Assembly: GCF_003018235.1 (NCBI RefSeq)
Contig: NZ_CP027439.1
Length of the DNA: 64,000 nucleotides
Direction: 5' to 3' (one strand)
From: Escherichia coli
GTDB taxonomy: Bacteria; Pseudomonadota; Gammaproteobacteria; Enterobacterales; Enterobacteriaceae
The translations under genes and the position numbers were made by a program. A model generated the notes under the pieces. It saw only the letters and a program-made list of their open reading frames with translations, was not told where the DNA came from and did not search any database. Within the stretch, counting starts at the first letter, position 1; each line of letters begins with the position of its first letter. Shown here one piece after another: positions 7,260 through 64,000 of the stretch.

Positions 7260-8408
7260 CTACAATGCGAGTTTAAGGATTGTGGTTAACACATCCGGGG
7301 TGTAGGTCTCAGCCAGCCCGAACCAGCGGGTATTCCCTTCCAGGTTTTCCAGGATACGGGGAAAGTCTGCCTCCGTTATTCCCAGTTGTGACAGACGAGT
7401 TGGGGTACCAATTTTATCAAACCATTTTTCAAGCGCCAGGATGCCTTGTTCAGCGGTTTTCAAACCGAACAGATGCTGCGCAAAACGCTCAAACTGAGAA
7501 GGATTCTGGCTGTGGTACCACTTCATCCATGCAGGCATTACAACGGATAACCCTGCACCATGGGGAACATTAAAGAGGGCTGACAGAGAATGCTCAATCA
7601 TGTGATTAGGGTAGCTGAATCCTGACGTTCCGGCATAGATCAGGCCATTAAGTGCCAGCGTTGCTGCCCATGCAAATTCCGCCCGGGCGTTGTAGTCGCC
7701 CGCATCTGCCAGCAACATTTCCGTCGTCTCCATGACCGTTGCGATAACCGATTCAACCAGACGTGACTGGATTTTCGGCTGCACCGCTGCTGTGAAATAA
7801 CCTTCAATGGAATGGGCGATAATGTCCGCTGCCGAATAGACAAGATAGTCCCGGGAGACCGTCTGCATCAGTGCCGGGTTCACAACGGAGACTTTCGGAA
7901 ACGTATGCACGGAATGCAGAGCAAATTTTTCCAGCGTGGCGTCATTGGTGACAACGGCACCACCGTTCATCTCACTGCCGGTCGCGGCAAGAGTCAGAAC
8001 AGAAAACACGGGTAAGGCAGCTTCGATTTGTCCTTTACCGATAAACAAATCCCAGACGTCGTTCTCATAAAGTGCGCCTGCCGCGACAGATTTCGCACTA
8101 TCCAGTACAGAACCGCCGCCCACGCTTAAAATGGCATCAACCTGGTGAGCACGCGCCAGCTGAATACCTTCTCTGACCTTAGAAATCAGCGGGTTGCTGA
8201 CTATCCCGCCAAACTCTACATACTGAATGCCGTGCTTTGTCAGGCTGTCGCTGATAGTGCTGAACAAACCATCTCGCTTGATGCGGTCACTGCCAAACGC
8301 CAGCAGAACTTTACTGACTTTCTGCTCTGCTAGGATCTGGCCGATCAGCTTTTCTTTGTCTGCACCAAATTCAATTCGGGTCGGGTTATAAAAACTGAAA
8401 TTATCCAT
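7260..8408 (-). CDS. Iron-containing (group III) alcohol dehydrogenase, YqhD/butanol-dehydrogenase-like
   Basis: 382 aa with GGGSVLDSAK and histidine-rich metal site motifs (HSIEGY, HMIEHSLSALFNVPHGAGL). Confidence 0.9.
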   Translation of the reverse strand: MDNFSFYNPTRIEFGADKEKLIGQILAEQKVSKVLLAFGSDRIKRDGLFSTISDSLTKHGIQYVEFGGIVSNPLISKVREGIQLARAHQVDAILSVGGGSVLDSAKSVAAGALYENDVWDLFIGKGQIEAALPVFSVLTLAATGSEMNGGAVVTNDATLEKFALHSVHTFPKVSVVNPALMQTVSRDYLVYSAADIIAHSIEGYFTAAVQPKIQSRLVESVIATVMETTEMLLADAGDYNARAEFAWAATLALNGLIYAGTSGFSYPNHMIEHSLSALFNVPHGAGLSVVMPAWMKWYHSQNPSQFERFAQHLFGLKTAEQGILALEKWFDKIGTPTRLSQLGITEADFPRILENLEGNTRWFGLAETYTPDVLTTILKLAL

Positions 8409-14108: not shown

Positions 14109-15839
<1,731 letters not shown>

Positions 15840-16086: not shown

Positions 16087-16521
16087 ATGGAAAATATGAT
16101 GAAAACTATGCGTGAGTATTTCCCCACGCGAACAGTAGTGTTCGAACAGTCTCTGGATATGTTTGGTATCACCCGGGGTAAGGATGGGAAGCTCATATTT
16201 CCCCGTCATTCTGATAACCGTTTCCCGATCGGGCGTATCCGCAAACGTCTGGCAGCTTATGGCTGGCGCGGAGAACGTCTGAATCAGGAAGTAGCGCGTA
16301 TCGTCGCGGGTCCTGGTGTTCTTCCTGAAAGAAATGATTACAGCATATTTTTTCCTTACGGATGGGAACGTAACCAGCTTACCCCTGAGATGCGGAGAAT
16401 GTTTCCCCGGAAGACTGGTCGCCGCGTGCTGCTTATGCTGGATGAGCTCCATTATATTCATGACGCCGGGGAGCGTAAGTCGTTTTCACCAGAAAGTAAT
16501 GAAGCACCCGAGGTATCATGA
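16087..16521 (+). CDS. Hypothetical protein co-transcribed with the recombinase
   Basis: AGGAG lies 6 nt before ATG 16087. The stop overlaps the recombinase start (ATGA). No motif was recognised. Confidence 0.6.
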   Translation: MENMMKTMREYFPTRTVVFEQSLDMFGITRGKDGKLIFPRHSDNRFPIGRIRKRLAAYGWRGERLNQEVARIVAGPGVLPERNDYSIFFPYGWERNQLTPEMRRMFPRKTGRRVLLMLDELHYIHDAGERKSFSPESNEAPEVS

Positions 16522-17300
16522 ATTACCCTTCTCTTCCCGGACAGGCCTACGCCCCGGAAAAAGTGCATCTACCTATGGCCATCGATTACCCGGCAGCGCT
16601 GGCCCTGCGTCAGATGGCAATCGTCCAGGACGAACTGCCGAAATACCTGCTGGCCCCGGAAGTGAGCGCCCTGCTGCATTATGTCCCCGATTTGCACCGC
16701 AAGATGCTGCTGGCCACGTTGTGGAATACCGGTGCGCGCATTAACGAAGCGCTGGCCCTGACCCGGAGTGATTTTTCGCTGGTGCCACCCTACCCGTTTG
16801 TGCAACTGGCCACGCTGAAACAGCGGGCGGAAAAAGCGGCCAGAACAGCAGGAAGAACGCCTGCCGGCAGCCAGGCGCATCGCTTGGTACCGCTGTCAGA
16901 TAAACAGTACGTCAGCCAGCTGGAGATGATGGTGGCCACGCTGAAAATTCCCCTCGAACGCAGGAATAAACGTACTGGCAGAACAGAGAAAGCACGCATC
17001 TGGGAAATTACCGACCGCACGGTCCGTACCTGGCTCAGCGAAGCGGTTGAAGCGGCAGCGGCTGACGGGGTGACGTTCTCCGTGCCGGTGACACCGCATA
17101 CATTCCGTCACAGCTATGCCATGCACATGTTGTACAACGGTATTCCGCTGAAAGTGCTGCAGAGCCTGATGGGACACAAGTCAGTCAGTTCGACAGAGGT
17201 GTACACGAAGGTGTTTGCACTGGACGTAGCTGCGCGACATCGGGTGCAGTTCCTGATGCCCAGTGATGATGCTGTGGCTATGCTCAGGGGAAACACCTAA
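16518..17300 (+). CDS. Tyrosine site-specific recombinase (Rsd/ResD/XerD-like, 260 aa)
   Basis: The catalytic signature is intact: TGARINEAL (Arg), HTFRHSYAMH (HxxR), LMGHKSVSSTEVY (His...Tyr). The size and layout match plasmid multimer-resolution recombinases such as F ResD and Salmonella Rsd (from memory). Confidence 0.9.
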   Translation: MNYPSLPGQAYAPEKVHLPMAIDYPAALALRQMAIVQDELPKYLLAPEVSALLHYVPDLHRKMLLATLWNTGARINEALALTRSDFSLVPPYPFVQLATLKQRAEKAARTAGRTPAGSQAHRLVPLSDKQYVSQLEMMVATLKIPLERRNKRTGRTEKARIWEITDRTVRTWLSEAVEAAAADGVTFSVPVTPHTFRHSYAMHMLYNGIPLKVLQSLMGHKSVSSTEVYTKVFALDVAARHRVQFLMPSDDAVAMLRGNT

Positions 17301-17546: not shown

Positions 17547-17614
17547 GTTGGAAAGCATTTTTTGTGCGTTGTTGAAGGGCCGCGACGAGTGGAGCAAGGT
17601 GACAAAAATAATGC

Positions 17615-17638
17615 TGGACAGAAAAACCTGAACGTCCA
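17615..17638 (+). repeat. Array site R0 (24-bp core-type motif)
   Basis: TGGACAGAA AAACCT GAACGTCCA. Confidence 0.75.
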
Positions 17639-18162
17639 ATATGGGGAAAGGATTACGTGACGGGGCGGGTTTGCTAGCAGTTCTGCGAACGTACCAGCGC
17701 ATCGAGGACTGGTAATGCCAGCAGGCTATTACGTCCGGGCTGGAAAATCGAGAGTTGCGATGATGACGAGGCAAGGGGATCGCAGACATTAACCTCTGCA
17801 ATAGAATATCTATTGCGTGATTTATTATAAATGTTATCCCTTTATTGTTTTCCAATTATCCCCGCAGTTGAAGAAATCAGCACTGAATAAAATTTTCAAA
17901 ATTTTATTCATGATGCTTACAAATAAATTAATGTAGATGAATCATCGGGATAGACTATTCTACATCAACTGCATTCTTAATTTTACGTCAAAATCAAGCG
18001 TTGCACTAAAATAAATCCTTACTAGAATAGCTATCCAGAAGAATCACCATGTATTCTTCAGTCTGACCCTCGGGCGCAGATTCTTGTTGTATTAAAATAT
18101 TGGGAAAATAAATCAGGAGTGAAAATGCAGTGACAGAGACACGTTACACAACGTCTGAAAGC

Positions 18163-18256
18163 AAAAAAGCCCTGAATAATCAGAGCTTTATTACTGGATT
18201 GGAAATGACGGCCATCAAATCCAATTCAAAACACACCAAAGGCATGTCCTCAAGTG
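18163..18256 (-). ncRNA. Candidate antisense sRNA (antitoxin) of module 1
   Basis: A minus-strand promoter reads TTGACG (18291-18286), 17-nt spacer, TATTAT (18268-18263). A minus-strand terminator has stem AAGCTCTGA/TCAGGGCTT followed by TTTTTT (plus-strand A run 18163-18168). The ends are approximate. Confidence 0.45.
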
Positions 18257-18339
18257 ATGAAGATAATAGAAAACTATTCAATCTACGTCAACCGAATGCC
18301 TGCGGTAACAATCCCAAAGCCGTTATCGGAGGTACGATT

Positions 18340-18441
18340 ATGTTGCCATTGCTCAACACGTTCATGAATGCCCCTCTTCTGAGTCAGGGGGCTACTATCC
18401 TGTTTCTTGGGCTTCTTATCCTTGCGCTCAAGAACCAGTGA
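18340..18441 (+). CDS. Candidate small hydrophobic toxin peptide, 33 aa (or 65 aa from in-frame ATG 18244)
   Basis: GGAGG lies 7 nt before the ATG. The product is MLPLLNTFMNAPLLSQGATILFLGLLILALKNQ, homologous to the 19340 peptide. A terminator hairpin (AGCTGGC-TTCG-GCCAGCT) follows. Confidence 0.5.
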   Translation: MLPLLNTFMNAPLLSQGATILFLGLLILALKNQ

Positions 18442-18475
18442 TCGCACTGAGCTGGCTTCGGCCAGCTTCTTTACT

Positions 18476-18499
18476 TGGATAGAATCACCTGAACGTCCA
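18476..18499 (+). repeat. Array site R1
   Basis: TGGATAGAA TCACCT GAACGTCCA. Confidence 0.75.
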
Positions 18500-18601
18500 G
18501 TCGGGCGCTAATTTATAATAAATGACCGTAGAAGGGCCATTTCTACGGCAAAGTTCTGGAGATGATAAAATAAGGGCCTTAAACAATAAAAGGGCTTGCT
18601 T

Positions 18602-19003
18602 ATGACACTGGACCAACTGCTTGAAATCCACGACTGCGCTGGGCTGAGCACCTATGAACAGGAAACAATTATATCTTTCATTAACCAGCGGCGAGGTGAC
18701 TTTGGTGTAAAAGCGTTTCCGGAAATTATGCCTCCAGTATCTTGCGGCTGGATCTCCAGAAGAACAAAACAACGTTCTCAGGAGCAGGCAGACGAAAATA
18801 GCTGGAATTATTATAAACAGAAGATTCAGGAATGGATAACGCTAATCGAATTGCATGAGGCATCACTTACTAGGGGGGAAAAGCTAAAGCGCTTTGTGGG
18901 AAAGCATAAATGGTGGTTAGGAGGCACTTGCGCAGTTATCGCATCAATTACAAGCACTGTGATAGCTAGCTGGATTCTTTCGTTATGGACTTGGGCTAAC
19001 TGA
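18602..19003 (+). CDS. Hypothetical tail-anchored membrane protein (133 aa), module 2
   Basis: Single ORF filling the R1-R2 interval, with a C-terminal hydrophobic helix (GGTCAVIASITSTVIASWILSLW). The stop abuts R2. Confidence 0.5.
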   Translation: MTLDQLLEIHDCAGLSTYEQETIISFINQRRGDFGVKAFPEIMPPVSCGWISRRTKQRSQEQADENSWNYYKQKIQEWITLIELHEASLTRGEKLKRFVGKHKWWLGGTCAVIASITSTVIASWILSLWTWAN

Positions 19004-19004
19004 C

Positions 19005-19028
19005 GTGACAGAAGCTGCGTTACGTCCA
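19005..19028 (+). repeat. Array site R2 (most divergent centre)
   Basis: GTGACAGAA GCTGCG TTACGTCCA. Confidence 0.55.
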
Positions 19029-19164
19029 AGTTGATAAAAAGTTGTTATCCACAGAGAACAGGGCGGTCATCCGGCGGGTTCAATAATATGATATTATTAC
19101 AGCACCTTAAAAAATAAGGATTGCGGACGGATGATATATTGATAAAGGATACTCATGCGTGTAA

Positions 19165-19262
19165 AACGCAAAATACCCTGAGTAATCAGGGTATTAAACG
19201 CGGAAAAGTAAAGGTTGAGCGCTTTACATTTTCCATTCACACCAGAGGCGTGACTAAATCTA
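19165..19262 (-). ncRNA. Candidate antisense sRNA (antitoxin) of module 3
   Basis: A minus-strand promoter reads TTGACG (19297-19292), 17-nt spacer, TAGAAT (19274-19269). A minus-strand terminator has the perfect stem AATACCCTGA/TCAGGGTATT followed by TTTTGCGTTTT. The ends are approximate. Confidence 0.45.
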
Positions 19263-19339
19263 AAATTGATTCTACGGCAACGTTCAATCTACGTCAAATC
19301 GCCAATGGTTTTCCTGTTATGAAAATTACCGGAGGCTTC

Positions 19340-19450
19340 ATGTTGTTAACCATCATCGACACCTATCTTCATGCTTCATTACTGACACAGATACTGGTAA
19401 TCCCGTTTATCTGTGCGGTGGTGTGGGCGGTAAAGAAAATCCGGGTATAA
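19340..19450 (+). CDS. Candidate small hydrophobic toxin peptide, 36 aa (or 66 aa from in-frame GTG 19250)
   Basis: GGAGG lies 5 nt before the ATG. The product is MLLTIIDTYLHASLLTQILVIPFICAVVWAVKKIRV. A 12-bp-stem terminator follows (AACATGGCTGGC...GCCAGCCATGTT). Confidence 0.5.
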   Translation: MLLTIIDTYLHASLLTQILVIPFICAVVWAVKKIRV

Positions 19451-19503
19451 CTTAAACATGGCTGGCTGAGAGGCCAGCCATGTTCAGTGAGTTTTGTTTC
19501 GAA

Positions 19504-19527
19504 TGGACAGAATAACCTGAATGTCCA
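19504..19527 (+). repeat. Array site R3 (consensus copy)
   Basis: TGGACAGAA TAACCT GAATGTCCA. Confidence 0.8.
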
Positions 19528-19645
19528 AGTTTGCAAGGAATTGTGATCGTACTACAACCAGTGTCAACCTTCCTATAATGCAGATAATCTTCTATAATTT
19601 CTTTTAATTCTGTGGCGATGTCATTAAGGAAAAGAGGTATTATTT

Positions 19646-19903
19646 ATGGGAAATAAACACATCAGCGCCAGTGAAGCTAAAAAGATTAGTTCTTCAGTGA
19701 TACCTGATGCAGACAAAACACTTGATATGATATTTGGAGGAATAAAGCTCCAAGCAAGATTGGGCCAGACATCCTTTATTTATCCTGTCCATGAAAACAT
19801 TCTTGAGCAAGTGGTCAAGGTTCTAAGGGAATCTGGTTATAGGATTAACTCATCGAAGGCTAATGAGAATAACAAATTTATTATTGAAATTAGCTGGCAG
19901 TGA
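19646..19903 (+). CDS. Hypothetical soluble protein (85 aa), module 4
   Basis: AGAGG lies upstream of the ATG. Two perfect TATAAT hexamers lie at 19574 and 19593. A terminator (AAGCCAC...GTGGCTTTTTTT) sits just before R4. Confidence 0.55.
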   Translation: MGNKHISASEAKKISSSVIPDADKTLDMIFGGIKLQARLGQTSFIYPVHENILEQVVKVLRESGYRINSSKANENNKFIIEISWQ

Positions 19904-19961
19904 AATAGAATCCGCTTTGTCTTTATTTTACCCTTGAAGCCACCCATTAGTGTGGCTTTTT

Positions 19962-19985
19962 TTGACAAGATTACCTGAATGTCCA
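19962..19985 (+). repeat. Array site R4
   Basis: TTGACAAGA TTACCT GAATGTCCA. Confidence 0.7.
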
Positions 19986-19998
19986 GGTAACGCGGGGA

Positions 19999-20445
19999 TT
20001 AATGAGAAGAATAGGTAGTTGGTATATTTAGCTTGAGTCCAATCTCCTTTATGAGATTGTAGGTATTTTCCTTACTGTTGCCAGCAAGTATTGAGGTGAT
20101 CTCATTAAGGTTTTGTGCTGCACCAAGAACTTCACCCTTTGATGGTACAAACTTCATACCTAAATAGCTTCTTTTTAGGCTACCAGGCAAGGCTGCATAC
20201 TTTGCCATTAACTGAGAAGCAGCATCTTTCAAATCGTGGATGGTTTCATGATTAGCTCTGAAATTTGTGATCGTCGCTTGCTCACGTAATAAAAGCGCTG
20301 TAATCCTCCCTAATTGTTCTCTGAATGATATATAAGGCTCAATGAATCTTTTTGCGATGAGTTGACCAACAACAAAAACGGTTACGCCGGTCAGAACAGT
20401 TACGGCAGCAGACGAACTCATAATTGTACCTAGTGACTGAATCAT
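19999..20445 (-). CDS. Hypothetical N-terminally membrane-anchored protein (148 aa), module 5; reversed relative to the sites
   Basis: One N-terminal TM helix (AAVTVLTGVTVFVVGQLIA) followed by a helical soluble part. It is the only long ORF between R4 and R5. Confidence 0.55.
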   Translation of the reverse strand: MIQSLGTIMSSSAAVTVLTGVTVFVVGQLIAKRFIEPYISFREQLGRITALLLREQATITNFRANHETIHDLKDAASQLMAKYAALPGSLKRSYLGMKFVPSKGEVLGAAQNLNEITSILAGNSKENTYNLIKEIGLKLNIPTTYSSH

Positions 20446-20482
20446 GGGGGTTATCCTATCTGGAGGGCAACAGCCTGTCTAC

Positions 20483-20506
20483 TGTACAGAAAATGCTGTA
20501 TGTCCA
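20483..20506 (+). repeat. Array site R5
   Basis: TGTACAGAA AATGCT GTATGTCCA. Confidence 0.6.
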
Positions 20507-20562
20507 GTCTGTGCTGGAATTATAATGGCAACCATGATCATCACAGGAAGAACGAGTAACAG

Positions 20563-21042
20563 ATGGCAACTGCGTGGGTGGATGTGGCTGATAATGCCGT
20601 AAAAATAGGTTTGGGGTCGTTGTTGACTATTTTAGGGGGGTGGCTGACTCTTAAGCTAACACAAAAGCACGAATTAAAAAAAGAAGCGGCAGTACAGGGA
20701 TTAAAAGATAAAGAAATAAAAACCAAACGATATGTGGAGTTTCTGACCTTGTCTCAATCTCTCATGCAAAAATATTTATATGAGCAGTGTGAAGCAAATA
20801 ACGATGATTATCTTGCCTATCTTCGCATACATAATGAGATAACGATCACGTCAGGTTTAGCCATAAGGAAAGCAGCATTTAAACTCCAGTTTGATGTTTC
20901 TACTTTCATTTTCTACAACAAAATACACGACACAGAACTCATTAATGCACTGAGGGATAAGGCTAGAAATTCTGTTTCCATGTTTCAGGCCATTGTGAAT
21001 GAGGAAATCTGCAACGGAAAGTTTGGCACAGCAAGCCAGTAG
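20563..21042 (+). CDS. Hypothetical N-terminally membrane-anchored protein (159 aa), module 6
   Basis: N-terminal TM helix (IGLGSLLTILGGWLTL), a Lys-rich linker, then a helical domain. The stop lies 4 nt before R6. Confidence 0.55.
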   Translation: MATAWVDVADNAVKIGLGSLLTILGGWLTLKLTQKHELKKEAAVQGLKDKEIKTKRYVEFLTLSQSLMQKYLYEQCEANNDDYLAYLRIHNEITITSGLAIRKAAFKLQFDVSTFIFYNKIHDTELINALRDKARNSVSMFQAIVNEEICNGKFGTASQ

Positions 21043-21045
21043 CGC

Positions 21046-21069
21046 TGGGCAGAATAACCTGAATGTTTA
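21046..21069 (+). repeat. Array site R6
   Basis: TGGGCAGAA TAACCT GAATGTTTA. Confidence 0.7.
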
Positions 21070-21118
21070 ACTGCCGGAGGAATTAACCGAGGGGCGTGAA
21101 AAGGCCGCTTACGCGGCC

Positions 21119-21653: not shown

Positions 21654-21941
21654 TCACCTCATTCGTTCGCTGGCAAGATTATAAACATCACTACGTTCAC
21701 GTTTCCCTACAGCAACAACAGCGATAACTAATTGATCATCAATCACCTGATAAACCAGGCGGAAGCCAGACGCACGAAGTTTAATTTTGTAGCAATCCTT
21801 TATCCCACGCAGTTTTGCTGATGGGATATGTGGATTTTCACTGCACTTCTTTAGCTTTTTAGCAAACTGCTGCTGAATTGCCTTATCCAGTTTTTGCCAT
21901 TCTTTCAGTGCATCTTCCCTGAATCTGACTGTGTAAGTCAT
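21654..21941 (-). CDS. stbE: RelE/StbE-family mRNA interferase toxin
   Basis: 95 aa. ALKEWQKL...LRG.KDCYKIKLR.SG.RLVYQVID...VGKRERS.VY matches RelE closely. It overlaps the upstream antitoxin gene by 4 nt. Confidence 0.9.
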   Translation of the reverse strand: MTYTVRFREDALKEWQKLDKAIQQQFAKKLKKCSENPHIPSAKLRGIKDCYKIKLRASGFRLVYQVIDDQLVIAVVAVGKRERSDVYNLASERMR

Positions 21942-22189
21942 AGGTAGCTATCCAGATCTACATCGTGCAGCTTCTGGTTGCTGCGTTCGGCGACCAGATT
22001 AACCAGTTCCTGATCGTCTAGGGCATCGAGCATCTTTTCATACAGTTCTGCGGGGACACAGTAAAAGGCGGGCTGGTTACGGTTCAGAATCGCGACTGGG
22101 TAACCATCACCGGCACTGACTGTCGCCATCGGGTTTTTTTTCAGTTCGCTGACACTGGCGCTAGTGTCACTCAGAATAATGTGGGGCAT
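21938..22189 (-). CDS. stbD: Phd/YefM/StbD-family antitoxin
   Basis: 83 aa with a Phd-type N-terminus (SVSELKKNPMATV). It is translationally coupled to the toxin gene. Confidence 0.85.
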   Translation of the reverse strand: MPHIILSDTSASVSELKKNPMATVSAGDGYPVAILNRNQPAFYCVPAELYEKMLDALDDQELVNLVAERSNQKLHDVDLDSYL

Positions 22190-31398: not shown

Positions 31399-31625
31399 TT
31401 CTTTAAAAATCAGGATTTATTTCAGCCTCCGGCAATACGCATTTATTTGTTCTGTCAGTCATCCGGCTGACAGGTAATGAGAACGCAGGAACAGAAGGAG
31501 GAAAACACCGGAAAGCGTCAGATGCAGATATGAAAAAAGCAGGTCAGGGACCTGCTTAATCCATGCCGCAGAGACTGCACGAACAGTTTTTGCGGCTCCA
31601 GTCAATCGTCATAAGAGGCTAAATT

Positions 31626-31856
31626 ATGACAATAAGTATTGTTTCACCTTCCGCAGCGGCTGTAAAGCCCCGCCGTCATCCCCGTTTCAGACGCGAAGAC
31701 ATCCCCGCGCCGGAAATTGACCCCGTGCTGAAAGCCTTCGGGCGACACATAGCCCGGAGTTTTCACCGGGGGCGTGGTGCACACATCCCCGCCATGAAAA
31801 ACACGGCCTTCGGGCAGGTGCTCCGCACACTCGAACTGAAACGCGCTTTTAACTGA
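31626..31856 (+). CDS. Hypothetical basic protein (76 aa)
   Basis: First ORF downstream of repeat copy A. There is no recognisable motif. Confidence 0.4.
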   Translation: MTISIVSPSAAAVKPRRHPRFRREDIPAPEIDPVLKAFGRHIARSFHRGRGAHIPAMKNTAFGQVLRTLELKRAFN

Positions 31857-38785: not shown

Positions 38786-38954
38786 TGCGGCAACAATCAC
38801 ACAGATTACCCGTAAACAGCCTGAATGAGCGGGTTATTTTCAGGAAAAGTGAGTGTGGTCAGCGTGCAGGGATATGGGCTATGATGTGCCCGGCGCTTGA
38901 GGCTTTCTGCCTCATGACGTGAAGGTGGTTTGTTGCCGTGTTGTGTGGCAGAAA

Positions 38955-39016
38955 GAAGATAGCCCCGTAGTAAGTTAATTTTCATTAACCACCACGAGGC
39001 ATCCCTATGTCTAGTC
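38955..39016 (-). ncRNA. sok: Sok/FlmB-type antisense RNA (approximate ends)
   Basis: A minus-strand promoter reads TTGCGC (39051-39046), 17-nt spacer, TATCCT (39028-39023). The transcript would cover the mok start region and the GTTAAT-GAAA-ATTAAC hairpin. Confidence 0.5.
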
Positions 39017-39219
39017 CACATCAGGATAGCCTCTTACCGCGCTTTGCGCAAGGAGAAGAAGGCCATGAAACTACCACGAAGTTCCCTTGTCTGGTGTGTG
39101 TTGATCGTGTGTCTCACACTGTTGATATTCACTTATCTGACACGAAAATCGCTGTGCGAGATTCGTTACAGAGACGGACACAGGGAGGTGGCGGCTTTCA
39201 TGGCTTACGAATCCGGTAA
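39007..39219 (+). CDS. mok: Mok-type leader reading frame overlapping hok
   Basis: 70-codon ORF overlapping the hok frame, as in hok/sok and flm loci. Confidence 0.7.
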
Positions 39220-42923: not shown

Positions 42924-43037
42924 AAGAAATTTGACTTCGTTCAAATATCAGAGTTTTTATGATTTAAAAGGGTGACAGTACGAAAGATAATTAGTATATT
43001 AATTACGTGGTTAATGCCACGTTAAAATTTGAATTTG

Positions 43038-43116
43038 AAAATCGCCGATGCAGGGAGTTCACGTCTCCCTGCATCGACTGTCCATAGAATCCTTTGTGAG
43101 GAGGTTCCTATGTATC
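43038..43116 (-). ncRNA. finP: FinP antisense RNA
   Basis: The minus strand reads GATACATAGGAACCTCCTCACAAAGGATTCTATGGACAGTCGATGCAGGGAGACGTGAACTCCCTGCATCGGCGATTTT. This gives two stem-loops complementary to the traJ leader, SD and start codon. The ends are approximate. Confidence 0.8.
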
Positions 43117-62082: not shown

Positions 62083-64000
62083 ATGAAGTTTATGTGATTG
62101 CCGGTGGTGAGTGGTTGCGGAATAACCTGAACGCCATTGCCGCTTTTATGGGAACCAGGACGTGGGATTCCATTGAAAAAATTGCGCTCACATTGTCTGT
62201 TCTCGCGGTGGCCGTGATGTGGGTACAGCGGCACAACGTGATGGATTTGCTGGGCTGGGTGGCCGTGTTTGTGCTTATCAGCCTGCTGGTTAATGTCCGC
62301 ACATCGGTGCAGATTATTGATAACAGTGACCTGGTCAAAGTTCACCGGGTGGATAATGTGCCGGTCGGACTGGCGATGCCACTTTCACTGACGACCCGTA
62401 TCGGGCATGCAATGGTGGCCAGTTACGAGATGATCTTCACGCAACCGGACAGTGTCACCTACAGCAAAACGGGGATGCTGTTTGGCGCAGAACTGGTATC
62501 AAAAAGCACCGACTTTTTGTCCCGGAATCCGGAAATCGCCAATCTTTTCCAGGATTATGTGCAGAACTGCGTGATGGGGGATATTTACCTGAACCACAAA
62601 TATACGCTGGAGGAGCTGATGGCCTCCGCTGATCCCTACACGCTGATTTTTTCCCGCCCCAGCCCGCTGCGGGGCGTTTATGACAGCAATAATAATTTCG
62701 TAACCTGTAAGGACGCTTCGGTTTCGCTGAAAGACAAGCTGAATCTGGACACACAGAGTGGCGGAAAAACCTGGCATTATTATGCCCAGCAGCTATTTGG
62801 CGGACGCCCTGATCCTAACCTGCTGTTCAGTACGCTGATTGGCGACAGTTACAGTTACTTCTATGGCTCAAGTAAATCAGCCAGCCAGATCATCCGCCAG
62901 AATGTCACCATCAATGCGCTGAAGGAGGGGATCACCAGTTATGCCGCACGTAATGGTGATTCGGCCAGCCTGGTGAATCTGGCCACCACATCATCGATGG
63001 AGAAGCAACGTCTGGCACATGTCTCCATCGGTCATGTGGCGATGCGGACACTGCCCATGACGCAGACCATCCTGACGGGGATCGCCATCGGTATTTTCCC
63101 GCTCCTGGTACTGGCGGCTGTCTTCAACAAACTGACGCTGTCCGTCCTGAAAGGCTATGTGTTTGCCCTGATGTGGTTGCAGTCATGGCCAATGTTGTAC
63201 GCCATTCTGAACAGCGCCATGACATTTTATGCAAAGCAGAATGGTGCACCGGTGGTGCTCTCGGAAATTTCACAGATACAGCTGAAATACTCCGATCTGG
63301 CTTCCACTGCCGGGTATCTTTCCATGATGATCCCGCCATTATCCTGGATGATGGTCAGGGGGCTCGGGGCAGGATTTTCCAGTGTGTACAGCCATTTCGC
63401 TTCCTCTGCTATCAGCCCGACCGCCAGTGCAGCAGGCAGTGTGGTTGACGGTAATTACTCCTACGGCAACATGCAGACGGAGAACGTTAACGGCTTCAGC
63501 TGGAGCACCAACAGCACCACGTCGTTTGGTCAGATGATGTACCAGACCGGCAGTGGCGCAACCGCCACACAGACCCGTGACGGTAATATGGTGATGGATG
63601 CAAGCGGAGCGATGTCCCGGTTACCGGTCGGCATCAATGCAACGCGTCAGATTGCGGCGGCACAACAGGAAATGGCCCGGGAAGCATCGAACAGAGCAGA
63701 AAGTGCCCTGCATGGGTTCAGCAGCAGTATTGCCAGTGCCTGGAACACGCTCAGTCAGTTTGGTTCTAACCGGGGGAGCAGTGATTCTGTCACCGGTGGT
63801 GCTGACAGCACGATGAGTGCTCAGGACTCCATGATGGCCAGCCGTATGCGCAGTGCAGTGGAAAGCTATGCGAAGGCGCATAATATCAGTAATGAGCAGG
63901 CGACTCAGGAACTGGCATCAACAAGTACCAGGCTATCTGGTGGAATGTATGCTGATGCTCATGCTGAATGGGGGGTTAAACCTAAAATTCTTGGTGTTGG
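62079..64000 (+). CDS. traG: TraG (pilus assembly / mating-pair stabilisation); 3' end outside the window
   Basis: A GTG start overlaps the traH stop. The translation (M)NEVYVIAGGEWLRNNLNAIAAFMGTRTWDS matches F TraG. The frame is open to the end of the window, so it is absent from the ORF track. Confidence 0.9.
   Translation, partial: MNEVYVIAGGEWLRNNLNAIAAFMGTRTWDSIEKIALTLSVLAVAVMWVQRHNVMDLLGWVAVFVLISLLVNVRTSVQIIDNSDLVKVHRVDNVPVGLAMPLSLTTRIGHAMVASYEMIFTQPDSVTYSKTGMLFGAELVSKSTDFLSRNPEIANLFQDYVQNCVMGDIYLNHKYTLEELMASADPYTLIFSRPSPLRGVYDSNNNFVTCKDASVSLKDKLNLDTQSGGKTWHYYAQQLFGGRPDPNLLFSTLIGDSYSYFYGSSKSASQIIRQNVTINALKEGITSYAARNGDSASLVNLATTSSMEKQRLAHVSIGHVAMRTLPMTQTILTGIAIGIFPLLVLAAVFNKLTLSVLKGYVFALMWLQSWPMLYAILNSAMTFYAKQNGAPVVLSEISQIQLKYSDLASTAGYLSMMIPPLSWMMVRGLGAGFSSVYSHFASSAISPTASAAGSVVDGNYSYGNMQTENVNGFSWSTNSTTSFGQMMYQTGSGATATQTRDGNMVMDASGAMSRLPVGINATRQIAAAQQEMAREASNRAESALHGFSSSIASAWNTLSQFGSNRGSSDSVTGGADSTMSAQDSMMASRMRSAVESYAKAHNISNEQATQELASTSTRLSGGMYADAHAEWGVKPKILGV

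Follow-up and report, generated by a model that had tools for sequence, protein, structure and literature searches.

Toxin-antitoxin units carried in integrons are protein-protein (type II) systems. Two kinds of RNA-controlled (type I) systems are closer to the loci described here. In hok/mok/sok of plasmid R1, the antisense RNA Sok blocks translation of the upstream mok frame, which is required for hok translation (PMC4147584). The small RNAs (sRNAs) of the tisB/istR-1, dinQ/agrB, zorO/orzO and shoB/ohsC type are divergently transcribed, show partial complementarity to their targets, and act at a standby site or on processed mRNAs (PMC4147584). We analysed a stretch of 64,000 nt of the Escherichia coli contig NZ_CP027439.1 (assembly GCF_003018235.1; hereafter the window), which belongs to an F-like conjugative plasmid, and in it two paralogous loci carried by modules 1 and 3 of a cassette array. 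Each locus comprises, on the plus strand, a gene for a small hydrophobic peptide preceded by a leader frame and, on the minus strand, a gene for an RNA of about 100 nt. Judging from the sequence, the anatomy of both loci is that of a type I toxin-antitoxin locus, to which toxicity would be ascribed by analogy, and we consider it probable that each module is a type I toxin-antitoxin-like cassette operating on a hok/mok/sok-like logic.

The likeness to hok/mok/sok covers several features. Both systems are plasmid-borne and encode a small hydrophobic peptide whose ribosome-binding site is not the antisense target, and in both an upstream frame leads to the toxin open reading frame (ORF), translation of this leader being presumably needed here as well. 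Likewise, both have a short, structured, terminator-ended cis-antisense RNA complementary to the upstream frame, and the duplex is an expected substrate of RNase III (PMC4147584). However, the cassettes have no sequence or profile similarity to hok/mok/sok, with neither a Pfam Hok nor an Rfam sok match at the locus. Their leader shares the frame of the peptide, to which it is usually fused, whereas mok overlaps out of frame, and their antisense RNA would pair with the body of the leader (codons ~10-42) instead of the initiation region. In addition, the leader start overlaps a two-codon mini-ORF, the antisense promoter is inside the leader ORF, and no fold-back (fbi/tac) elements were identified in the cassette.

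As in tisB/istR-1, dinQ/agrB, zorO/orzO and shoB/ohsC, the Shine-Dalgarno sequence (SD) of the toxin is predicted to be hidden in mRNA structure, the site of pairing would be not the SD but a region ~85-180 nt upstream of the toxin start, and the product is a small, apparently alpha-helical membrane peptide. Unlike those systems, the RNA of the cassettes is a fully complementary cis-antisense RNA inside a putatively translated leader, and the peptides show no similarity to theirs, a Pfam search with the long ORFs giving no hit at E ≤ 1; Pfam DinQ (PF28061) was recorded on neighbouring genes in related plasmids.

Relatives of the two loci were sought in collections of 5.8 billion and 1.84 billion proteins, in plasmids, in species-representative genomes, and with DNA-pattern scans of metagenome and viral sequences. 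All these searches recovered only relatives of the two loci, indicating a small and unannotated family. We compared eight lineages, namely T1 (module 1), its sub-lineages P4, P5, P6 and P7, T3 (module 3), T4 and T5. T1 and its sub-lineages are 67-83% identical over the long ORF formed by leader and peptide, and the elements of the cassette are conserved across the eight lineages at 30-95% identity.

The two loci had been proposed as candidate type I modules from the sequence alone. Re-reading of the sequence and a motif scan recovered every element listed in this original prediction in both modules, including a 15-nt block, TTCAATCTACGTCAA, that is identical at 18277-18291 and 19283-19297. A scan of 4 kb returned 12 terminator-like sites against 3.0 expected, and seven promoter-like sites against 9.3 expected. 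Because promoter-like sites alone are not enriched, significance rests on conservation. This absence of enrichment, in an AT-rich region, is what could be expected from a chance assembly of promoter- and terminator-like motifs around spurious short ORFs; such an assembly is nevertheless refuted by the conservation in eight lineages, down to the low end of the identity range just given, and by the element-specific selective signatures described below, and we regard it as exceedingly improbable.

In module 1, the leader start region (18115-18133, plus strand) contains an SD, AGGAG (18115-18119), and a mini-ORF, ATG CAG TGA (18125-18133), overlapping the GTG start of the leader at 18130. The leader ORF (18130-18339, plus strand; 70 codons) is in frame and fused with the peptide, for a total of 103 amino acids (aa; 18130-18441). 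The peptide gene (18328-18441, plus strand) has its own SD, GGAGG (18328-18332), and extends from an ATG at 18340 to a stop at 18441, encoding the 33-aa peptide MLPLLNTFMNAPLLSQGATILFLGLLILALKNQ. On the minus strand, the antisense promoter (18263-18291; TTGACG-17-TATTAT, matching the consensus at 10 of 12 positions) lies inside leader codons 45-54. The antisense RNA gene (18158-18256, minus strand; ~98 nt) includes stem-loop 1 (SL1; 18232-18246), stem-loop 2 (SL2; ~18195-18222) and a terminator, stem-loop 3 (SL3; 18166-18189), with a U tract at 18158-18165. An intrinsic terminator of the sense unit, found by the scan at 18449-18476 (plus strand), abuts an rfsF-like site, and its stem, GCTGGC-N4-GCCAGC, is kept in all lineages. 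Two candidate sense promoters were located. Promoter P1 (18001-18028, plus strand; TTGCAC-16-TAGAAT) is below the scan threshold, and its -10 (TAGAAT/TAAAAT) and spacing recur in the alignment of lineages P5 and T5. Promoter P2 (18090-18098, plus strand) is an extended -10-like sequence, TATTAAAAT, situated ~12 nt upstream of the leader SD; it reads TGnTAAAAT in most lineages and is kept as TGTGTTAnAnT / TGTGGTAAAAT in the T1 group, T4 and T5.

Module 3 has the same layout. Its leader start region (19116-19142, plus strand) contains a weak SD, AAGGA (19116-19120), a mini-ORF, ATG ATA TAT TGA (19131-19142), and a TTG start at 19139. The leader ORF (19139-19339, plus strand) comprises 67 codons from this TTG, in frame with the peptide; a mechanical ORF list starts it at 19121. 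The form initiated at the TTG is 103 aa, as long as that of module 1, and is called so in some database entries (P0039). The peptide gene (19331-19450, plus strand) has the SD GGAGG (19331-19335) and an ATG at 19340, with a stop at 19450, and encodes the 36-aa peptide MLLTIIDTYLHASLLTQILVIPFICAVVWAVKKIRV. The antisense RNA gene (19160-19262, minus strand; ~100 nt) has SL1 at 19238-19252 and a terminator at 19172-19195 followed by a U-rich tract, and its promoter (19269-19297, minus strand; TTGACG-17-TAGAAT) was found by the scan. The sense terminator (19457-19500, plus strand), derived from folding, consists of a GC-rich hairpin (19457-19482; stem of 11 bp) and a T-rich run after it.

Each antisense RNA, from its predicted start (~18255 or ~19261) to the U tract, folds into three stem-loops, with minimum free energies of -37.6 kcal/mol for module 1 (z = -5.0) and -38.6 kcal/mol for module 3 (z = -7.1). 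RNAalifold returned the same 31-pair structure in all lineages, although T1 and T3 have unrelated SL2 sequences; SL1 is nearly identical in both, and the rest of the RNA has diverged. Covariation was measured on an alignment of 10 sequences, with slid partners and 500 shuffles as controls. Standard pairs occupied 96% of the cells, compared with 39-49% with slid partners, and 13 pairs showed compensatory changes against 3.3 expected from the shuffles, none of which (0/500) reached the observed values. The G·U cells numbered 35 on the minus strand (where the plus strand would have A·C mismatches) versus two of the opposite kind, indicating that the structure belongs to the minus strand. Covariance-model scores were 118.6 bits for module 1 and 95.8 bits for module 3, and a model built without T4 and T5 found their minus strands at 87 and 96 bits.

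Selection on the corresponding codons agrees with this structure. The promoter of the minus-strand RNA, with the -35 TTGACG, the 17-nt spacer and a -10 TAnnAT, is kept in the homologous loci of all eight lineages. Synonymous divergence (pS) falls to 0.007 in the promoter codons and 0.07 in the terminator codons, as compared with 0.43-0.48 in flanking and peptide codons. Recent alleles that change terminator codons (S19G, S19R, F20L) all retain pairing on the minus strand, and compensatory changes in SL2 have been accepted although they alter amino acids of the leader. By these comparisons, the minus strand encodes a real structured RNA of ~100 nt that is under selection, and the claim that each locus holds a cis-antisense RNA gene, with promoter, three-stem-loop structure and terminator, is borne out by conservation and covariation. 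A conserved box, CACACCARAGGCRTG, had been taken for the context of a translational start; it corresponds instead to SL1 of the antisense RNA, in which the G·U pairs are specific to the minus strand.

The antisense RNA lies wholly inside the sense transcription unit as deduced from the sequence, so that it should be able to pair with the peptide mRNA, being complementary to the leader portion indicated above. As the best-supported element of the cassette, it might instead be the main product, a trans-acting plasmid sRNA or one involved in recombination or maintenance, with the sense ORFs being secondary. The near identity of SL1 between T1 and T3 despite divergence elsewhere, and the location of the cassettes in arrays beside recombinase genes, would fit such a role. 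The conservation of SL1 is, however, accounted for just as well by complementarity with the sense box; the RNA invariably occurs within a leader-peptide unit, whatever the recombinase context (ResD, serine resolvase, phage integrase or P2-like prophage), and the peptide ORF is itself under purifying selection. We thus consider a predominantly sRNA function improbable, and favour an antisense RNA acting on the peptide mRNA.

The small hydrophobic ORFs were likewise predicted to be genuine coding sequences, and this is upheld in both loci. Over the peptide codons (71-103), the ratio of non-synonymous to synonymous divergence (pN/pS) is 0.35, with 15, nine and 23 variable sites at codon positions 1, 2 and 3, respectively. 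A purine-rich SD (GGAGG, GAAGG, TGAGG or GGAGA) is found 4-7 nt before an ATG or GTG in all eight lineages, indicating that the start and its SD are kept. Substitution patterns therefore show the peptide to be evolving as coding sequence under purifying selection. Its length varies from 32 to 39 aa across lineages. A motif, LL[DN]TF[ML]NAP in the T1 group and FLERYLDAP in T5, precedes a hydrophobic stretch of ~17 residues, after which the peptide ends in a basic C-terminus; the grand average of hydropathy (GRAVY) is 1.15 for the module 1 peptide, which has a 17-aa hydrophobic window, and 1.51 for that of module 3. AlphaFold modelling of the 103-aa fusion predicted helices at residues 62-79 and 83-102, with predicted local distance difference test (pLDDT) values of 72-90, which is consistent with a helical peptide of the membrane type.

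The leader frame occupies 67-70 codons before the peptide ATG without any internal stop in the eight lineages, the other five frames having one to nine stops each (one to eight in module 3, whose leader is also devoid of stops). Indels in the leader preserve the frame (3 nt, and 15 nt in P0003). The leader starts with GTG in the T1 group and T4 or with TTG in T3 and T5, in each case overlapping the stop of the mini-ORF. The mini-ORF, ATG-NN[G/T]-TGA, overlaps the leader start in all eight lineages and has two codons, or three in T3; AGGAG or GGGAG is present 5-6 nt before it in seven lineages.

The long ORF had been thought to begin at the ATG or GTG of the box, giving forms of 65 and 66 aa. 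The in-frame ORF is actually 103 aa long in each module, spanning 18130-18441 in module 1 and, when counted from the TTG, 19139-19450 in module 3. As a start, the box was discarded: its Met codon is Ile in P0025 (165 contigs) and in T4, and a single nucleotide separates the ATG from the SD-like AAGG, an unusable spacing. Of the mok-like arrangement originally suggested, the participation of an upstream in-frame frame in the translation of the peptide remains probable, with the start placed ~110 nt further upstream than the box.

The resemblance between the T1 and T3 leaders is limited to the stretches holding elements of the antisense RNA. A folded protein encoded by the long ORF was rejected; the AlphaFold model is poor, with a mean pLDDT of 57.8 and values below 50 for residues 1-40. 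This restricted T1/T3 similarity, the changes accepted in SL2 and the lack of structure in residues 1-40 suggest that the leader is selected mainly to stay translatable and not for the sequence it encodes; that is, it would be mainly the openness of the frame, more than its amino-acid sequence, that is under selection.

Lineage T4 is informative in this respect. Its leader ends at a TGA located inside the peptide SD (ATT TGA GGT ACA GCT ATG), leaving 6 nt to the ATG; the terminator and the peptide ORF of 36 aa are intact. Since the TGA separates leader from peptide, the T4 peptide must initiate on its own start, and this arrangement has, in sequence, the classic geometry of translational coupling.

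These data also bear on the alternative that the only product is a 103-aa protein, with a disordered basic N-terminus and a C-terminal helical hairpin or membrane anchor, having a non-toxic role such as exclusion, phage defence or some other task at the membrane; the antisense RNA would then serve to tune expression, with the internal SD and ATG being incidental. Such a protein would agree with a long ORF that is open and fused in seven of the eight lineages, with in-frame indels and a strong SD of its own, with a leader pN/pS of 0.38-0.44 outside the RNA and DNA elements, and with annotation pipelines, which call the long ORF; moreover, neighbouring cassettes encode small proteins with C-terminal hydrophobic segments (the 133-aa product of module 2, and 112-aa ORFs in L003 and L011). 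However, it is difficult to reconcile with T4, where the TGA splits the leader from a peptide ORF that keeps SD and ATG, with N-terminal frameshift alleles persisting on many contigs, with the restricted similarity of the T1 and T3 leaders, with SL2 changes accepted at the expense of the amino-acid sequence, and with the low pLDDT of the first 40 residues. Further, the internal SD and start are maintained at 4-7 nt in every lineage, and the anti-SD block facing this SD shows fewer synonymous changes. On these grounds we find a 103-aa protein as the sole product rather unlikely, and retain the peptide as the probable effector of the type I-like cassette.

In the sense mRNA, RNAalifold and local folds place the peptide SD in a hairpin with a conserved anti-SD block (AUGCCU.CGGUAAC pairing with GUUAUCG.AGGUA), predicted at 18296-18334 (plus strand) in module 1; for T1-group and T3 sequences the local folds range from -8 to -18 kcal/mol. 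The anti-SD block (codons 55-70) shows reduced synonymous divergence (pS 0.185). These data are suggestive, and we treat the SD hairpin as a prediction and a three-way switch among box, anti-SD and SD as a hypothesis derived from modelling.

We propose the following scheme. A sense mRNA of ~370-440 nt would extend from a promoter upstream of the leader to the intrinsic terminator beside the rfsF-like site. By analogy with the systems described above, ribosomes would load at the strong SD and translate the two-codon mini-ORF, and a fraction of them would re-initiate at the overlapping GTG or TTG and translate the leader. This translation would pass through the region complementary to the antisense RNA into the SD hairpin, permitting synthesis of the 32-39-aa membrane-inserting peptide; in most lineages the 103-aa in-frame fusion would be made too. 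The antisense RNA, transcribed from the near-consensus sigma-70 promoter inside the leader, would pair with leader codons ~10-42, and this pairing might stop leader translation, trigger RNase III cleavage, or both, so that the SD hairpin would stay closed and no peptide be produced. Upon loss of the cassette the antisense RNA would decay, and the peptide would cause cell death or arrest. The sequence comparisons support the presence and conservation of the ORFs, of the mini-ORF, and of the promoter, structure and terminator of the antisense RNA. What we infer from analogy is that ribosomes re-initiate, that translation is coupled, that the duplex mediates repression, that the peptide is toxic and that the two RNAs differ in stability.

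Several observations weigh against this interpretation. The antisense RNA covers neither the leader nor the peptide ribosome-binding site, and repression must therefore be indirect. In the SD hairpin, 93% of the cells pair, but covariation is not significant, with 73-293 of 500 shuffles doing as well; the hairpin is weak in T4 and T5, and blocking the antisense target lowers the predicted SD accessibility in four of seven variants, leaving it unchanged in the other three. The in-frame fusion of leader and peptide in all lineages except T4, together with the leader pN/pS already given, would be compatible with a larger protein, and T4 (L044) is a single metagenomic contig, which makes sampling thin. 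The peptide is unlike any known toxin family: NCBIfam, PADLOC and PHROG searches of the long ORFs of both modules gave no family match, a Pfam search of the same ORFs gave no family at E ≤ 1, and the only matches were four weak PHROG hits to the module 3 long ORF (E 0.006-0.14), three of unknown function and one tail-fibre. Finally, alleles with a weakened SD (GGAGT, on 325 contigs; GAAGG in P7; GAATGG in L045) or with an N-terminal frameshift (L004/P0028 and P0041) also occur, and they may represent attenuated toxins or indicate that the elements matter less than proposed.

Other searches were equally devoid of known relatives. Profiles and RNA models for Hok/Gef and other curated type I toxin families (Ldr, TisB, Ibs, ShoB, ZorO, DinQ, Fst, TimP/RyfA and others) did not match, and every database name for ORFs of the family is "hypothetical protein", the ORF called by annotation pipelines being the long one. 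Rfam, whether hits were judged by gathering threshold or by E-value, yielded no match better than chance over 17600-21100; in the window, sok was matched only at 38891-39067. We found no description of the cassette in the literature on type I systems of IncX and conjugative plasmids, on cassette arrays or on leader coupling. The family looks undescribed, and the mini-ORF, the in-frame leader and the antisense promoter inside the leader look unusual for the class.

A search for further members had been suggested; it yielded the eight lineages, and the covariance model found no third copy of the cassette in the window or in the fetched loci. In the DNA-pattern scan of metagenome and viral collections, four of 23 matching stretches were true members, all of T1 or T3 type. 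Among species-representative genomes, we detected only two short contigs (L015 and L016), in metagenome-assembled genomes of Streptococcus parasanguinis and Veillonella parvula; being 96% identical to the enterobacterial T1 cassette, they are probably binning contamination. The cassette is carried by IncF and IncX plasmids in Escherichia, Salmonella, Klebsiella and Citrobacter, and alleles occur on hundreds of contigs. Recombinase genes nearby include those of serine resolvases and, in L010, of a phage-type integrase. T5 (L041-L043; L041 5001-5327; P0089, seen on 18 contigs) is located in a prophage, where its neighbours are DinI, a Peptidase_S24 gene and genes for P2-like tail and baseplate proteins; its 3' flank includes TAATGAACA, which is the right half of the rfsF-like sequence of F. 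The leader-peptide-antisense unit thus travels as one piece among IncF plasmids, IncX plasmids and a P2-like prophage.

In the window, both modules belong to an array of 24-bp rfsF-like sites with the consensus TGGAYAGAAnnACCTGAAYGTCCA. Six direct copies occur between 17615 and 21069 on the plus strand, at 17615-17638, 18476-18499, 19005-19028 (degenerate), 19504-19527, 19962-19985 and 21046-21069. The first of them is the left boundary of module 1 (17639-18475), and module 3 occupies 19029-19503. A tyrosine recombinase gene (16518-17300), whose product is 86% identical to ResD of the F plasmid, lies upstream of both loci. The left half of the sites (TGGACAGAAnAACCT) matches sequence ~300 bp downstream of F resD (L040 7969-7995), presumably rfsF, judging from its expected place downstream of resD. 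Homology breakpoints among IncX and IncF plasmids coincide with the 24-bp sites. Because homology with other plasmids begins and ends there, the modules behave as exchangeable cassettes, and these breakpoints make them appear to shuffle between plasmids. In IncX1 plasmids, the same cassettes come after a serine resolvase gene. We found no published description of multi-site rfsF-like arrays.

In their organization, the modules resemble the toxin-antitoxin cassettes of integrons: each is self-contained, has promoters and terminators of its own within ~470 bp, terminates in a short recombination site, and is found among unrelated small cassettes downstream of a tyrosine recombinase gene, with two paralogous copies in one array. 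They differ in having 24-bp rfsF-like sites and not attC, in that the recombinase is ResD and not an integron integrase, and in that mobility would here be deduced only from homology breakpoints. We put forward as a tentative possibility that the two loci are the first known members of a new type I family, distinguished by in-frame leader gating through mini-ORF re-initiation and carried on a mobile cassette ending in an rfsF-like site; the array would then be a ResD/rfsF platform for cassette capture, like an integron in function but derived from a system for plasmid resolution, exchanging cassettes among IncF and IncX plasmids and P2-like prophages and stabilised by toxin cassettes.

The remainder of the array and its surroundings include other small elements. 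Module 2 (18602-19003, plus strand) encodes a protein of 133 aa with a C-terminal hydrophobic segment, assigned to phrog_34759, a shorter version of which is named "nuclease" in some records. Its homologues at L010 6470-6874 and L014 589-915 (57% and 73% identity) come after diverged T1-type units, and the gene also precedes the T3 unit in IncX1 plasmids; by its distribution and sequence, it accompanies the toxin-antitoxin-like units and has diverged along with them. Module 1 opens with ~360 bp (17639-18000) of conserved non-coding DNA, 92-94% identical in L003, L005, L027 and L035, absent from the diverged lineages and interrupted by an insertion sequence (IS) fragment in L004. This stretch, perhaps what is left of another cassette, includes an inverted repeat of 27 nt (17884-17910) and a hairpin resembling a terminator (17797-17817).

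Directly after the array, two overlapping ORFs of 83 and 95 aa (21654-22189, minus strand) form a candidate type II toxin-antitoxin pair, as they look like StbD/StbE and RelB/RelE. In IncX plasmids, DinQ-like type I toxin genes are situated 1-2 kb from the cassettes (L002 4127-4228; L006-L009 ~7508-7619), named as such by the annotation pipeline PGAP or by a faint match to Pfam PF28061. Type I (DinQ-like) and type II toxin-antitoxin genes occupy the same accessory regions as the cassette, and these regions seem to collect small RNA-controlled toxin genes. Elsewhere in the window, Rfam matches above the gathering score were isrC (14650-14772, plus strand), AS-pc01 (31534-31631, minus strand), sok (38891-39067, plus strand), traJ 5'UTR/FinP (43005-43116) and AS-traG (62798-62883, minus strand), those of sok (38.9 kb) and traJ 5'UTR/FinP (~43.0 kb) being among the matches recorded for this F-like plasmid. 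The isrC-like RNA adjoins an IS3-family transposase just upstream of resD.

If the proposed interpretation is correct, an undescribed family of RNA-controlled toxins would be present on clinically widespread plasmids, such as IncX1 of Salmonella and E. coli and IncF of Klebsiella and E. coli, and a function would be assigned to genes now known only as "hypothetical protein". The cassette offers a natural test case for translational control, leading from a mini-ORF to an in-frame leader and an internal start, with T4 providing the variant in which a stop stands between leader and toxin. The rfsF-like arrays, in turn, point to a route by which small cassettes may pass between plasmid families and phages.

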